DNA of 13,028 nucleotides from a virus (taxonomy: Duplodnaviria; Heunggongvirae; Uroviricota; Caudoviricetes), in IMG/VR virus record IMGVR_UViG_2693429621_000007; one strand, 5' to 3'. Shown piece after piece: positions 1-11,500 of the stretch (the first letter of the stretch is position 1; every line of letters begins with the position of its first letter). Both the position numbers and the translations under genes were made by a program. The notes beneath the pieces are model-generated. The model searched no databases. It had not been told where the DNA came from and saw only the letters and a list, made by a program, of their open reading frames with translations.

Positions 1-2877
1 TACACCGAAATCATCGATGTGAAACAGTGCTACCCGAACACGGCGCTGGTCGGCGTGCAGGTGGATTCAGAGCAGTTCGGTAACCAGCAGGTGAGTCGCA
101 ATTATCATCTTCGCGGGCGCATTCTGCAGGTGCCGTCGAACTATAATCCGCAGACGCGGCAATACAGCGGTATCTGGGACGGAACGCTTAAGCCAGCATA
201 CAGCAACAACATGGCCTGGTGTCTGTGGGACATGCTCACTCATCCGCGCTACGGCATGGGGAAACGTCTTGGTGCGGCAGATGTGGACAAATGGGCGCTG
301 TATGTCATCGGCCAGTACTGCGACCAGTCAGTGACGGACGGATTTGGCGGCACGGAGCCGCGCATCACCTGTAACTCTTACCTGACCACACAGCGTAAGG
401 CGTGGGATGTTCTCAGTGATTTCTGCTCGGCGATGCGCTGTATGCCGGTATGGAACGGACAGATGCTGACGTTCGTGCAGGACCGACCGTCGGATAAGGT
501 GTGGACCTATAACCGCAGTAATGTGGTGATGCCGGACGATGGCGCGCCGTTCCGCTACAGCTTCAGCGCCCTGAAGGACCGCCATAATGCCGTTGAGGTG
601 AACTGGATTGACCCAGATAACGGCTGGGAGACGGCGACAGAGCTTGTGGAGGATACGCAGGCCATTGTCCGTTACGGTCGTAACGTCACGAAGATGGATG
701 CCTTTGGCTGTACCAGCCGGGGGCAGGCACACCGAGCCGGGCTGTGGCTGATTAAAACGGAACTGCTGGAAACGCAGACCGTGGACTTCAGCGTGGGCGC
801 AGAAGGGCTTCGCCATGTACCGGGTGATGTCATTGAAATCTGCGATGATGATTATGCCGGTATCAGCACCGGTGGTCGCGTACTGGCGGTGAACAGCCAG
901 ACCCGGACGCTGACGCTCGACCGTGAAATCACGCTGCCGTCCTCCGGTACCACGCTGATAAGCCTGGTTGACGGAAGTGGCAATCCGGTCAGCGTGGAGG
1001 TCCAGTCCGTCACCGACGGCGTGAAGGTGAAAGTGAGCCGGGTTCCTGACGGCGTTGCAGAATACAGCGTGTGGGGGCTGAAGCTGCCGACGCTGCACCA
1101 GCGATTGTTCCGCTGCGTGAGTATCCGTGAGAACGACGACGGCACGTATGCCATCACCGCCGTGCAGCATGTGCCGGAAAAAGAGGCCATCGTGGATAAC
1201 GGGGCACACTTTGACGGTGACCGGCGCGGCACGGTGAATGGTGTCACGCCGCCAGCGGTGCAGCACCTGACTGCCGAAGTCACCGCAGACAGCGGGGAAT
1301 ATCAGGTGCTGGCGCGATGGGACACGCCGAAGGTGGTGAAGGGTGTGAGCTTCCTGCTTCGCCTGACCGTGGCAGCGGACGACGGCAGTGAGCGGCTGGT
1401 CAGCACAGCCAGGACGACGGAAACCACATACCGCTTCAGGCAGCTGGCGCTGGGGAATTACAGTCTGACAGTCCGGGCGGTAAATGCCCGGGGGCAGCAG
1501 GGCGATCCGGCGTCGGTATCGTTCCGGATTGCGGCACCGGCAGCGCCTGTCACTATTGAACTGATACCGGGGTATTTTCAGATAACGGCGGTCCCGAAAC
1601 TGGCTGTATATGACCCGACGGTGCAGTTTGAGTTCTGGTTTTCGGAAAAGCGGATTGCGGATATCAGGCAGGTTGAAACCAGCGCCCGCTATCTTGGCAC
1701 GGCGCTGTACTGGATAGCCGCCAGTATCAATATCAGGCCGGGCCATGATTATTATTTTTACGTTCGCAGTGTGAACACCGTTGGCAAATCGGCATTTGTG
1801 GAGGCCATCGGTCGGGCGAGCGATGATGCAGAAGGTTATCTGAATTTTTATAAAGGGTTGATCAATAAAACGCATCTCGGCAAGGAGTTGTGGACGCAGA
1901 TTGATAACGGTCAGCTTGCGCCGGACCTGACTGAAATCAGGACGTCCATTACGAATGTCAGCAATGAAATCACGCAAACCGTCAATAAAAAACTGGAAAA
2001 TCAGAGTGCTGCAATCCAGCAGATACAGAAAGTTCAGGTTGATACAAATAATAACCTGAACAGCATGTGGGCTGTGAAGCTGCAACAGATGAAGGACGGA
2101 CGCCTTTATATTGCGGGTATCGGTGCCGGTATTGAGAATACGCCAGCAGGAATGCAGAGTCAGGTGCTGCTGGCGGCAGACAGGATTGCGATGATTAATC
2201 CTGCGAATGGCAACACAAAGCCGATGTTTGTTGGTCAGGGCGATCAGATATTCATGAACGACGTGTTCCTGAAATGCCTGACGGCTCCGACCATTACCAG
2301 CGGCGGTAATCCTCCGGCATTTTCCCTGACACCTGGCGGACGGCTGACGGCGAAAAATGCCGATATCAGCGGTAACGTGAACGCGAACTCCGGGACGCTC
2401 AACAACGTCACGATTAATAAGAACTGTCGGGTTCTGGGAAAATTGTCCGCGAACCAGATTGAAGGCGATCTCGTTAAAACAGTGGGCAAACCTTTCCCAC
2501 GGGACTCCCGGGCACCGGAGAGGTGGCCATCAGGGACCATTACCGTCAGGGTTTATGACGATCAGCCGTTTGATCGGCAAATTGTTATTCCCGCGGTGGC
2601 GTTTCGCGGTGCTAAACATGAGCGGAAGAATAACAATATTTATTCGTCATGCCGCCTGATAGTGAAGAAAAACGGTGCTGAAATTTATAACCGAACGACC
2701 CTGGATAATACGCTGATATATACGGGTGTTATTGATATGCCTGCCGGTCACGGTCACATGACGCTGGAGTTTTCTGTATCGGCATGGCTGGTAAATGGCT
2801 GGTATCCCACAGCAAGTATCAGCGATTTGCTGGTTGTGGTGATGAAGAAAGCCACTGCAGGCATCACGATTAGCTGA
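1..2877 (+). CDS. J: Host specificity protein J (central tail fibre / tail tip), 5'-partial; gene continues upstream of the window
   Basis: Frame 1 is open from base 1 (the ORF-track Met at 19 is internal) to TGA at 2875-2877. The translation reads as lambda gpJ, ending ...[18 protein letters not shown], which I recall as the lambda J C-terminus. It is followed by a hairpin terminator and then lom, the canonical lambdoid order. Confidence 0.9.
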
Positions 2878-2896
2878 ATTTTATAACCCAGATACG

Positions 2897-2921
2897 GGCA
2901 CCAGAAATGGTGCCTTTTTTA
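2897..2921 (+). terminator. Putative intrinsic terminator downstream of J (copy 1)
   Basis: Stem GGCACC (2897-2902), loop AGAAAT, stem GGTGCC (2909-2914), then TTTTTTATT, 20 nt after the J stop. Confidence 0.55.
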
Positions 2922-2944
2922 TTGCAGAAAAGCGAGAGGTAATT

Positions 2945-8515: not shown

Positions 8516-8542
8516 TTAGCCAGGTAACACAGTGTTATGACA

Positions 8543-8568
8543 GCCCGCCGGTTCAGGCGGGCTTTTTT
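8543..8568 (+). terminator. Putative intrinsic terminator between lom and stf (copy 2)
   Basis: Stem GCCCGCC (8543-8549), loop GGTTCA, stem GGCGGGC (8556-8562), then TTTTTT. Confidence 0.5.
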
Positions 8569-8579
8569 GTGGGGTGAAT

Positions 8580-11500
8580 ATGGCAGTAAAGATTTCAGGT
8601 GTACTGAAAGACGGCACAGGAAAACCGGTACAGAACTGCACAATCCAGCTGAAAGCAAAACGTAACAGCACCACGGTGGTGGTGAACACGCTGGCCTCAG
8701 AAAATCCGGATGAAGCCGGGCGTTACAGCATGGACGTTGAGTACGGTCAGTACAGCGTTATTCTGTTGGTGGAAGGATTCCCGCCGTCACATGCCGGGAC
8801 CATCACCGTGTATGAAGATTCCCGACCCGGTACGCTGAATGATTTTCTCGGTGCCATGACGGAGGATGATGCCCGTCCGGAGGCACTGCGCCGTTTTGAG
8901 CTGATGGTGGAAGAGGTGGCGCGTAACGCGTCCGCGGTGGCACAGAACACGGCAGCCGCGAAGAAATCAGCCAGCGATGCCAGCACATCAGCCCGTGAGG
9001 CGGCAACCCATGCGACTGATGCTGCAGATTCAGCACGTGCAGCCAGCACGTCAGCCGGACAGGCCGCTTCGTCGGCTCAGTCAGCGTCTTCCAGCGCAGG
9101 AACGGCATCAACAAAGGCCACTGAAGCCTCAAAAAGTGCTGCCGCTGCAGAGTCCTCAAAAAGCGCGGCGGCTACCAGTGCCGGTGCGGCGAAAACGTTA
9201 GAAACGAATGCGGCAGCGTCACAACAATCAGCAGCCACTTCTGCATCCACCGCGACCACGAAAGCGTCAGAAGCTGCCACCTCAGCCCGGGATGCGTCGG
9301 CTTCAAAAGAGGCGGCAAAATCATCAGAAACGAACGCATCATCAAGCGCCAGTAGCGCAGCTTCCTCGGCGACGGCGGCTGCAAATTCTGCGAAGGCGGC
9401 CAAAACGTCCGAGACGAACGCCAGGTCTTCTGAAACGGCAGCGGGACAGAGTGCCTCAGCTGCGGCAGGCTCAAAAACAGCGGCTGCGTCGTCTGCCAGC
9501 GCCGCGTCAACAAGTGCCGGGCAGGCCTCAGCCAGTGCCACCGCCGCCGGAAAATCGGCAGAAAGCGCCGCATCATCCGCTTCAACAGCCACAACGAAGG
9601 CTGGCGAAGCCACTGAGCAGGCCACGGCAGCAGCGAGGTCAGCTTCCGCAGCGAAGACATCCGAAACGAACGCGAAAGCGTCGGAAACCCGTGCAGAATC
9701 CTCAAAAACGGCTGCCGCATCGTCCGCCAGTTCGGCGGCGTCATCGGCATCATCGGCGTCTGCTTCAAAAGATGAGGCGACCAGACAGGCGTCAGCAGCG
9801 AAGGGCAGCGCCACGACGGCATCCACGAAGGCGACAGAGGCTGCTGGTAGTGCGACGGCAGCAGCTCAGAGCAAAAGTACGGCGGAATCTGCAGCAACGC
9901 GCGCTGAGACAGCGGCAAAACGGGCAGAGGATATTGCATCCGCCGTGGCGCTTGAGGATGCGAGCACGACGAAAAAGGGGATAGTACAGCTCAGTAGTGC
10001 GACTAACAGCACTTCCGAGTCACTGGCGGCAACACCAAAAGCCGTTAAGGCCGCGTATGACCTGGCTAACGGGAAATACACCGCACAGGATGCAACGACA
10101 GCACAGAAAGGGATAATCCAGCTAAGCAGCGCGACCAACAGCACGTCTGAAACGCTGGCGGCAACGCCAAAGGCAGTAAAAGCAGCCAATGACAATGCTG
10201 AGAAACGTCTGCAGAAAGATCAGAACGGTGCGGATATCCCTGGCAAAGACACCTTTACGAAAAATATTGGTGCCTGCCGTGCCTTCGGTGGGTCAGTAAG
10301 CACAACAACAGGAAACTGGACGACTGCACAGTTTATCGAGTGGCTGGATTCTCAGGGAGCATTTAACCATCCATACTGGATGTGCAAGGGTTCCTGGTCT
10401 TATGGCAATAATAAAATCATTACTGATACTGGCTGCGGTAATATTCATCTCGCCGGAGCTGTCATTGAAGTAATGGGGATAAAGTCAGCGATGACGATCC
10501 GCATTACCACTCCGACCACATCCAGCGGTGGCGGAACAACCAACGCCCAGTTTACCTATATTAATCACGGAACAGATTATTCACCTGGCTGGCGAAGGGA
10601 CTATAACTCCAGAAATAAGCCAACGGCATCAGAGATCGGGGCGCTACCGTCAGGTGGAACAGCAGTATCATCAGTTAATCTGGCTTCAAAAGGTCGGGTA
10701 GCCGCGCTGACAGACAATACGCAGGGGGCAGCAGGTCTTGAGTTATACGAGGTGTATAACAACGGATATCCAACAGCGTATGGAAATATCATTCACCTGA
10801 AAGGGATGACAGCCGTTGGCGAAGGTGAGTTACTCATCGGCTGGAGTGGTACAAGCGGTGCTCATGCTCCGGCATTTATTCGTTCACGACGGGATACGAC
10901 CGACGCAAACTGGTCGCCGTGGGCGCAGCTTTACACCTCGGCTCATCCTCCTGCAGAGTTTTATCCAGTCGGTGCACCAATCCCGTGGCCATCAGATACC
11001 GTTCCGTCTGGTTATGCCCTGATGCAGGGGCAGACTTTTGACAAATCTGCTTACCCGAAACTTGCAGCCGCTTATCCGTCAGGCGTGATCCCTGATATGC
11101 GTGGCTGGACGATTAAGGGCAAGCCCGCCAGTGGTCGTGCCGTATTGTCTCAGGAACAGGATGGCATTAAATCGCACACCCACAGCGCCAGCGCATCCAG
11201 TACGGATTTGGGGACGAAAACCACATCGTCGTTTGATTACGGCACTAAATCCACGAATAACACCGGGGCGCATACGCACAGTCTGAGCGGCTCTACAAGT
11301 TCAGCTGGGGCCCACCAACATAGTCAGACTGGGCCCAGAACGAATAGCGGGAGTCAACCTACTGGAATGTTTCCGGCAGGGAGTACTCAAGTTAGCGGGA
11401 CTAATCAGGTTGGTATCAGTGGCTCATTAACCAGTGGCACCTCCCAATGGGTAGGTAAATCATCTTCAGAAGGAAACCATACACACTCACTGTCCGGCAC

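Follow-up and report, generated by a model that had tools for sequence, protein, structure and literature searches.

Two diverged J-lom-stf modules around an IS21 element on a Shigella sonnei draft contig, very probably brought together by a scaffolding join

Gene content of the contig

The sequence analysed here (13,028 nt, hereafter the window) is the entire contig CXDP01000133.1 (L033) of the Shigella sonnei draft assembly GCA_001247735.1. The two differ at base 5882 alone, which is N in the deposited record and A in the supplied sequence. All genes and elements described below lie on the plus strand.

The left module opens with the 3' 2,877 nt of gpJ allele 1 (1..2877), encoding the tail tip/host specificity protein, from nt 604 of the gene; the window start falls inside the multi-copy J repeat. 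Pfam domains Phage-tail_3, Ig_J, Ig_J_second, Phage_Tail_Tip and Ig_GpJ_C were identified, and the gene shows 99.75–99.8% identity to the 1159-aa J gene of loci L002 and L023–L032, which identifies it as the allele carried by the prophage next to sitABCD in S. sonnei. A full-length lom gene (allele 1, 2945..3544) follows, encoding a 199-aa Ail/Lom outer-membrane beta-barrel (Pfam Ail_Lom 1–199/199, E 4e-129), and the exact protein is present in 30 S. sonnei contigs examined. Only codons 1–104 of stf allele 1 (3608..3919; Pfam phage_tail_N 1–104/134) precede the IS21 element that interrupts it. The open reading frame runs on to a stop at 3934 within IS21, and the resulting 108-aa product is also encoded by S. 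sonnei CP010829.1 and by seven draft contigs, which mostly end 31–53 nt into IS21. This copy is without the stf 3' part and tfa in the window; in L031, the stf1 3' remainder is present after an intact IS21, and is followed by tfa and sitDCBA.

The IS21 element (3920..5881) spans nt 1 to ∼1958–1963 of 2130, and comprises the left inverted repeat, istA, and istB minus its last ∼35 codons. Its left end is intact at 3920 (TGTCAG...), inside stf codon 105. istA (4021–5193, 390 aa) possesses the Pfam domains HTH_23, rve and Mu-transpos_C_2, and IstB_IS21 is found at residues 9–230 of the istB frame, which starts at 5190/5193. The two genes are consecutive with a one-base ATGA overlap, as in L012 and L031 and as expected of the IS21 family. 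Over 1,963 nt the element is 99.9% identical to copies bearing the annotation 'IS21-like element IS21 family', and 3920–5870 (1,951 nt) shows no mismatches to the pSS_046 copy. The domains are those of IstA (transposase) and IstB (AAA+ helper) in the known 2.13-kb IS21, which generates a 4-bp target duplication. Unlike a complete IS21, the window element breaks within istB, ∼170 bp before its right end and at the scaffold gap, and the pair of terminal inverted repeats with a target duplication is not found in the window.

The right module begins with the 3' 2,046 nt of gpJ allele 2 (J2, 5883..7928), a gene of 3,498 nt that is entered here at nt 1453 (codon 485). Ss046 has J2 as a full-length 1165-aa gene call, as do nine of the ten complete-genome loci listed, where it lies within an intact M-L-K-I-J tail cluster; in L017 it is frame-split into 183- and 982-aa calls. 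The lom allele 2 (7999..8481) is truncated, and its 160-aa product (Pfam Ail_Lom 1–159/199) also occurs in complete genomes. It is followed by stf allele 2 (8580..11663), a full-length side tail fibre gene encoding 1027 aa from ATG 8580 or 1029 aa from GTG 8574, with phage_tail_N, Phage_fiber_2 and Collar domains and the exact protein in Ss046. The tail fibre assembly gene tfa (11663..12244, 193 aa, Pfam Caudo_TAP), the exact protein of which was retrieved from 3,535 index blocks, is located 3' of the J2 and stf2 genes in the intact tail-gene cluster of the ten complete-genome loci listed. All four genes, J, lom, stf and tfa, are thereby present in this copy. The window closes with the first 35 nt of IS1 (12994..13028; terminal sequence GGTGATGCTGCCAACTTACTGAT from 12994), inside the IS1 repeat, into which L013 runs on from the same point. 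The entire stretch 5883–13028 is 100% identical to L013, L018, L019 and L022.

Divergence and genomic homes of the two copies

A first-pass annotation had proposed that 847–3911 and 5880–8880 form a collinear direct repeat, and three blastn blocks bear this out: 850–2427 versus 5883–7460 (91.0% identity), 2839–3421 versus 7890–8475 (88.8%) and 3499–3639 versus 8470–8611 (97.2%). I then used a global alignment of both copies, in 100-nt bins, to map the divergence. The description of the J body and the intergenic region as nearly identical holds for the lom-stf intergenic region (96%), but overstates the J body, where bins range from 75 to 98%. The divergence was correctly placed in the J C-terminal domain (38–53% per bin), in patches of lom (77–100%, with ∼80 nt of allele 1 absent from copy 2) and at the stf 5' end (46–64% per bin). 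The two J proteins share 80% identity overall, diverging mostly in the final ∼140 aa; the Lom proteins share 90% over 159 aa, and the Stf N-termini 50%.

The Pfam domains of both copies follow the series and order of a J-lom-stf-tfa module, and gene order and domains are the same as in phage lambda and the K-12 Rac prophage. The divergence between the two modules is concentrated in the receptor-binding J C-terminus and Stf. Unlike in lambda and Rac, the S. sonnei copies are decayed, with stf1 split by IS21 and lom2 truncated, and sitABCD is part of the left prophage.

The modules have separate homes in complete S. sonnei genomes. A prophage adjoining sitABCD/uspF/ompN contains the left module, whose chromosomal neighbours (uspF-like, porin, PFOR) match what I take to be the Rac site of the K-12 map, with stfR-tfaR beside uspF/ompN/ydbK. 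The right module belongs to a prophage adjoining int/yfdC-like/mlaA. The two are kept separate, the right one first, in ∼30 complete genomes, and in three of these I determined the distance: they are 0.66–0.74 Mb apart, with the right module upstream on the same strand. The right and left modules of CP023645.1 lie at 1.27 and 1.96 Mb, both forward; those of CP179997.1 lie at 3.58 and 2.84 Mb, both reverse; and CP019689.1 shows the same arrangement, spanning the origin. The suggested comparison with related genomes thus did reveal two prophages, but not at one position. These separate homes support the view that the modules are two alleles from different prophages, and not a recent tandem duplication.

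The insertion ending the left module within stf is also found in CP179997.1, where IS21 is intact and flanked by a 4-bp target duplication, GAAG. The stf::IS21 insertion is genuine, as first annotated, and is shared across S. sonnei. The presence in this species of several decayed lambdoid prophages whose J/lom/stf alleles have diverged, and of many IS21 copies, is well known: the CP104423.1 chromosome possesses at least 10 full copies (≥99.86% identity), and pSS_046 has three further ones.

The junction at position 5882

The window contains only one novel junction, from IS21 to the second J copy at 5882/5883. The scaffold gap at 5882 (no strand) is the only link joining both halves, and a genuine composite locus would show uninterrupted sequence here, where the deposited record has N. 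Because this N stands at the only novel junction, the IS21-J2 adjacency was probably never sequenced. An N is by itself no proof of non-adjacency, since in the same series of drafts a single N at position 1448 of L003 sits within collinear sequence. The right module had been proposed to start at a truncated IS21 right end; the right ∼170 bp are indeed missing, but the continuity of the element with J2 is not confirmed.

In the supplied sequence the frame is open from istB into J across 5882, a property that depends on the one-nucleotide placeholder for N. The resulting 911-aa IstB'-'J fusion ORF (ATG 5193) occurs on a single contig of the collection, CXDP01000133.1 itself, and the proposed composite locus J1-lom-stf'-IS21-'J2-lom'-stf-tfa is likewise limited to this contig. 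The IS21/J2 junction is absent from all ∼30 complete S. sonnei genomes examined, and IS21 adjoins J in 0 of the 10 chromosomal contexts of CP104423.1. The exact junction 33-mer has no match in genome_contigs or viral_contigs, where Shigella is, I assume, probably unrepresented as its own species, which gives this negative little weight, and in 5,426 complete E. coli genomes a 70-nt junction query matched by its J half and nothing else. The joint neither recurs in independent assemblies nor fits the gene order of closed relatives, and a literature search for the accession GCA_001247735.1 found no mention.

The break points have features of their own. The 10-mer CCACGCTGAA is common to IS21 and J2, on opposite strands and 54 nt from the J2 break. 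Including the ATC before the N, the shared word extends to 13 nt, its J2 minus-strand match being 54 nt upstream of the right piece; these last 3 nt of the IS21 part are compatible with IS21 minus 1 nt, or with the J2 minus strand. A 13-nt identity of this kind is non-random, and shows a specific tie between the two spots, whether of algorithmic or of biological origin. An origin of the ATC by GapFiller extension, through a 10-nt overlap with J2 minus-strand reads, was considered and not retained; it is plausible and parameter-dependent. A truncated IS21 copy elsewhere was likewise sought as the source of the break, but none of the 10 chromosomal copies examined is truncated. On pSS_046, an IS21 remnant is disrupted by IS630, and IS21 sequence resumes there at nt 1951, 7–12 nt from the break. 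This remnant is suggestive, though not conclusive, of an assembly-graph branch nearby.

Origin of the arrangement

The side-by-side arrangement of the modules is very probably a false join from short-read assembly, with no fused prophage behind it. The window would then be one scaffolded contig of an Illumina-type S. sonnei draft, in which pieces of two distant prophages were strung together: the sit-adjacent one would have supplied J1-lom-stf' with the IS21 left end, and the one next to mlaA would account for J2(3')-lom'-stf-tfa as far as IS1. The pieces may have been linked across the multi-copy IS21 by read-pair scaffolding and gap filling, leaving a single N at the second piece, and the IS21 body between them would be a collapsed repeat assignable to no single copy. 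The tools were probably those of the Sanger pipeline (Velvet, SSPACE and GapFiller). According to the pipeline paper, the latter two work greedily and 'can lead to false joins', and contigs that are joined have N between them (PMC5320598). The window resembles the false joins of SSPACE and GapFiller after Velvet (PMC5320598) in its single N at a non-collinear junction, in its multi-copy repeat flanks (IS21, J paralogues) with ends at repeat boundaries, and in that N-joined paralogue concatenations also occur in sibling assemblies.

Indeed, the sibling CX* draft contigs show N or an N-run at every non-collinear join of J/stf paralogue fragments: at 2063, 3471 and 5627–5633 in L003, at 2170 in L004, at 2925 in L006, and at 1155–1174, 2234–2244 and 5435 in L011, which for example has three successive stf 5' fragments. 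In the window, every end of the contig and of its pieces coincides with a repeat boundary. The longest stretch identical between J2 and a third J paralogue, J3, is 180 nt, and it is at its end that the right piece begins, 15 nt before the first J2-versus-J3 difference, as expected of an assembly-graph break. The contig end 35 nt into IS1 is also as expected of a short-read contig. Two observations speak against a scaffolding join: at least five read pairs linking IS21 to J2 would be needed, and the 13-nt inverted IS21/J2 identity beside the N is no obvious product of the default parameters of SSPACE and GapFiller.

This identity could instead point to a real rearrangement in the isolate, namely microhomology-based illegitimate recombination between IS21 of the sit-adjacent prophage and J2, with one base missed by the assembler. 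The junction lies outside the long shared repeats that are the usual site of mis-joins, lone Ns replacing one base of collinear sequence occur in the series, and IS-bounded duplications are known at the locus (L027/L028). However, inverted microhomology would lead from IS21 into the J2 minus strand, while the contig has the plus strand, with just 3 nt after the shared word. Given the reference order, the joint would imply that ∼0.7 Mb was duplicated in tandem, that a copy was translocated or that a circle was excised, and a duplication of that size across both prophage sites would not be stable. One contig has the junction, against 0 of ∼30 complete genomes, the right piece begins at an assembly-graph boundary, and a short-read assembly is unable to link stf1 to a particular IS21 copy. 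I regard this rearrangement as very unlikely, and its specific form, a duplication- or translocation-type joint in one isolate between IS21 nt ∼1958 (CCACGCTGAA) and gpJ of the prophage 0.7 Mb away, as still a little less probable. An extra IS21 in or abutting J2, or the near-identical J3, may alternatively have been collapsed with the stf1 copy (A-R-B and C-R-D giving A-R-D), an outcome that mimics deletion of everything between both IS21 copies. This would account for genuine IS21-J read pairs, and IS21 is multi-copy in S. sonnei, the J gene of an E. coli genome (L001) contains an IS21-family element, and J2 equals J3 over the 180 nt that closely precede the right piece. Nonetheless such a partly real join is highly improbable: the right piece has no IS21 right-end sequence (...GGCGTTGACA), the element ends ∼170 bp short although abundant IS21 reads should fill this stretch, and J adjoins none of the 10 chromosomal copies in CP104423.1.

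The first-pass annotation had favoured adjacent lambdoid prophages, with IS21 inserting into the first stf and an IS21-associated deletion then fusing them into a composite locus. With A at 5882, the sequence does read continuously as J-lom-stf'-IS21'-'J-lom'-stf-tfa, and the frame is open from istB into J, but that frame hinges on the placeholder for N. A transposase-made deletion keeps the IS end, whereas this joint is ∼170 bp inside IS21, and the J2 5' region is complete in the genomes examined (one frame-split copy, L017). The prophages are neither adjacent nor in the right order in complete genomes: no deletion can yield the left-then-right order, because the right module is always upstream of the left in the three genomes. 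The N gap, the missing IS end and the module order contradict this proposal, which I consider barely conceivable. The same annotation had named a chimeric assembly as the finding that would undo it, and as far as sequence-level evidence reaches, this is what the contig appears to be; the composite fused prophage is almost certainly not a real feature.

Were the joint true, two receptor-binding tail modules would lie in direct repeat, with istB fused to J. As matters stand, the biological import is small, and the practical lesson is one of data hygiene. An N turned silently into A makes a scaffolding join resemble a sequenced recombination joint, and the apparent in-frame 911-aa IstB-J 'fusion protein' already stands in a public protein collection as a called gene. 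Scans for gene fusions and prophage mosaics should mask or flag placeholder positions, and draft contigs crossing multi-copy IS elements deserve suspicion. Just one record covers 80% of the window: E. coli VTB97379v, with an unrelated ISEc62 insertion in a single J gene.

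Two tail-fibre modules in direct repeat

The components of this locus are real and ordinary: S. sonnei has two lambdoid tail-fibre modules, both decayed, and one of them bears a shared IS21 insertion in stf. Their juxtaposition, the truncated appearance of the IS21 and the fusion of istB to J are very probably products of scaffolding. The ORF listing and Pfam scans give a gene order, all on the plus strand, beginning with the 3′ part (2.9 kb) of a first gpJ copy (J1, 19–2877), lom copy 1 (2945–3544, 199 amino acids), codons 1–104 only of the side tail fibre gene stf copy 1 (3608–3919), and an IS21 with its left end at 3920, istA at 4021–5193 and istB from 5193. 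These are followed by the 3′ part of a second gpJ copy (J2, 5883–7928), a truncated lom copy 2 (7999–8481, 160 amino acids), a full stf copy 2 (8580–11663) and tfa (11663–12244), and the window closes on the first 35 nt of an IS1. The tfa of S. sonnei Ss046 (about 13212 in L010, the Ss046 right-prophage locus) lacks 65 bp present in the window (11787–11849) and in the other complete genomes. The loss causes a frameshift, and Ss046 has no tfa call at this point.

Comparison of the left and right modules with blastn returned three collinear blocks, 850–2427 against 5883–7460 (91.0%), 2839–3421 against 7890–8475 (88.8%) and 3499–3639 against 8470–8611 (97.2%), and the direct repeat described in the first-pass annotation is therefore present. 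The J bodies had been called nearly identical, which overstates their likeness: in a global alignment scored in 100-nt bins they are 75–98% identical, with 38–53% over the J C-terminal domain, alternating values of 77–100% over lom (where copy 2 lacks about 80 nt), 96% in the lom–stf spacer and 46–64% at the 5′ end of stf. The J proteins are 80% identical, with differences concentrated in the last ∼140 residues, the Lom proteins 90%, and the Stf N-termini 50%. This divergence pattern, at both the nucleotide and protein level, bears out the proposal that these are two alleles and not a fresh duplication. The stretch missing from lom copy 2 lies near its 3′ end (8469–8490, against 3420–3519), and this copy encodes 160 amino acids instead of 199; the lesion is old, since several complete S. 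sonnei genomes call the same truncated product.

The left J differs from 12 complete-genome loci at positions 147, 668, 684, 1097, 1104, 1105, 1266 and 1272, and at all eight carries the J2 base (8 of the 79 sites that differ between J1 and J2 in 1–1400). Some of these bases are also found in sibling drafts and in J3, a third gpJ paralogue. They could reflect paralogue mixing during assembly, or short-patch gene conversion.

Genomic home of each half

Window 1–5882 is 99.8% identical to a prophage located beside sitABCD/uspF/ompN (loci L002 and L023–L032), while 5883–13028 is 100% identical to another prophage, whose neighbours are an integrase, a yfdC-like gene and mlaA (loci L013, L018, L019 and L022). 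In the latter, J2 lies within a complete M-L-K-I-J tail gene cluster. Ss046 and nine of the ten complete-genome loci shown have it as a full-length call of 1165 residues; the tenth (L017) has it split into calls of 183 and 982 residues. About 30 complete genomes, those returned by the look-up and a subset of S. sonnei, were examined, and both module positions are known for three: CP023645.1 (right module at 1.27 Mb, left at 1.96 Mb, forward), CP179997.1 (3.58 and 2.84 Mb, reverse) and CP019689.1 (0.42 and 4.64 Mb, reverse, the interval crossing the origin). Related genomes thus do carry two separate prophages, but not adjacent at one position: in coding-strand order the right module comes before the left in all three, 0.66–0.74 Mb apart. 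In the window, the left precedes the right with nothing between, an order that no deletion can yield from that of the complete genomes.

The element in the left stf is IS21 itself: it matches many annotated copies at 99.9% identity and shows no mismatch over 3920–5870 to the copy on plasmid pSS_046. In CP179997.1 a complete IS21 occupies the same stf site, flanked by a GAAG duplication and followed by the remainder of stf, a tfa-like gene and sitDCBA; the same 108-residue stf fragment is encoded in seven draft contigs and CP010829.1. The insertion into the left stf, as first proposed, is genuine and common to S. sonnei. Among the complete genomes examined, this IS21 is intact only in CP179997.1; most others carry two IS600 insertions in it, at sites corresponding to window 4343–4347 and 5017, and a downstream deletion. 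In these loci (L002, L023–L030 and L032, about 10976–14474) nothing past IS21 nt 1098 is retained. The absence of IS600 from the contig may be a matter of lineage, or may have come about if reads of other IS21 copies were used in gap filling. CP019689.1 has a 9.4-kb IS600-bounded tandem repeat, M-L-K-I-J-lom-stf′-IS21′ (L027/L028, 4.617–4.647 Mb), which may have arisen through a genuine IS-mediated duplication or else be a fault of long-read assembly.

The IS21–J2 joint at 5882

A single contig in the entire collection has the ORF running from istB into J (ATG at 5193), namely CXDP01000133.1 of draft assembly GCA_001247735.1; its 13,028 bp correspond to the full window. The deposited record differs from the window at a single base, 5882, which is A in the window and N in the record, and is the exact changeover from IS21 to J2. 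The new joint, then, has never been read as sequence; the N is a gap between two pieces set side by side. Because the reading frame rests on a one-base placeholder, the in-frame IstB–J fusion is meaningless.

Both edges of the gap fall in repeats. A full IS21 is 2,130 bp; the window copy stops at about nt 1958–1963, without the right inverted repeat and the last ∼35 codons of istB. One S. sonnei chromosome holds at least 10 full copies, at least 99.86% identical, and the virulence plasmid three more, so short reads cannot assign the copy that follows the left stf; sibling draft contigs end 31–53 nt into IS21. A pSS_046 remnant (locus L034, 10367–11785), split by IS630 and with an 11-nt internal deletion, resumes IS21 at nt 1951, 7–12 nt before the window's stop, and is a possible assembly-graph branch point. 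The right piece starts at the end of the longest stretch identical between J2 and J3 (180 nt), 15 nt before the first base separating them; this is where an assembly graph would be expected to break, and a biological breakpoint would have no reason to fall there. The contig end, 35 nt into IS1, likewise lies in a repeat.

Insertion of IS21 followed by an adjacent deletion, the origin first proposed, is rejected, being contradicted by three things: the missing IS end, the module order in complete genomes, which is the reverse of the window's, and the presence in those genomes of the whole 5′ region of J2. The window order requires a duplication-, translocation- or circle-type joint, or an assembly error. 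A genuine rearrangement confined to this isolate could supply such a joint, on the one contig that shows it, but is very improbable. Slightly less probable still is a second IS21 near J2 or J3, collapsed with the stf copy: none of the full copies counted in that one chromosome and on the plasmid adjoins J.

The 13 bases before the N (5869–5881) read CCACGCTGAAATC, where IS21 itself reads CCACGCTGAATATC. They can be read as IS21 minus one T, and also match exactly the J2 minus strand (L010, 7244–7256), 54 nt upstream of the right-piece start. A match so near the J2 break has, by rough estimate, a chance below 1e-4, too low for coincidence, and something specific therefore linked the IS21 edge to this spot. 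On the most economical reading, a gap-filling step may have added a few bases to the IS21 edge, drawing on J2-region reads in its pool. The 13-mer may instead be an inverted microhomology from a microhomology-mediated event; this would join IS21 to the J2 minus strand, an inversion and not the direct order of the contig, and so does not rescue the composite locus.

A scaffolding origin also fits the sibling contigs of this accession series, which have the same fault. Wherever non-collinear pieces meet in them, whether J fragments (L003, L004 and L006) or three stf 5′ fragments in succession (L011), an N or N-run marks the join. In the Sanger prokaryote pipeline, from which this assembly appears to come, judging by its accession series and N pattern, an N separates contigs joined by read pairs, and the greedy SSPACE and GapFiller steps are capable of false joins (PMC5320598). 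Chimeras of this kind are systematic among the sibling CX* contigs, and through them artificial proteins enter public collections; one N-joined chimera gives a spurious 1,919-residue ORF. The artefactual 911-residue IstB′–′J ORF (5193–7928) has itself been entered, with Pfam hits, as a called gene in a public gene collection.
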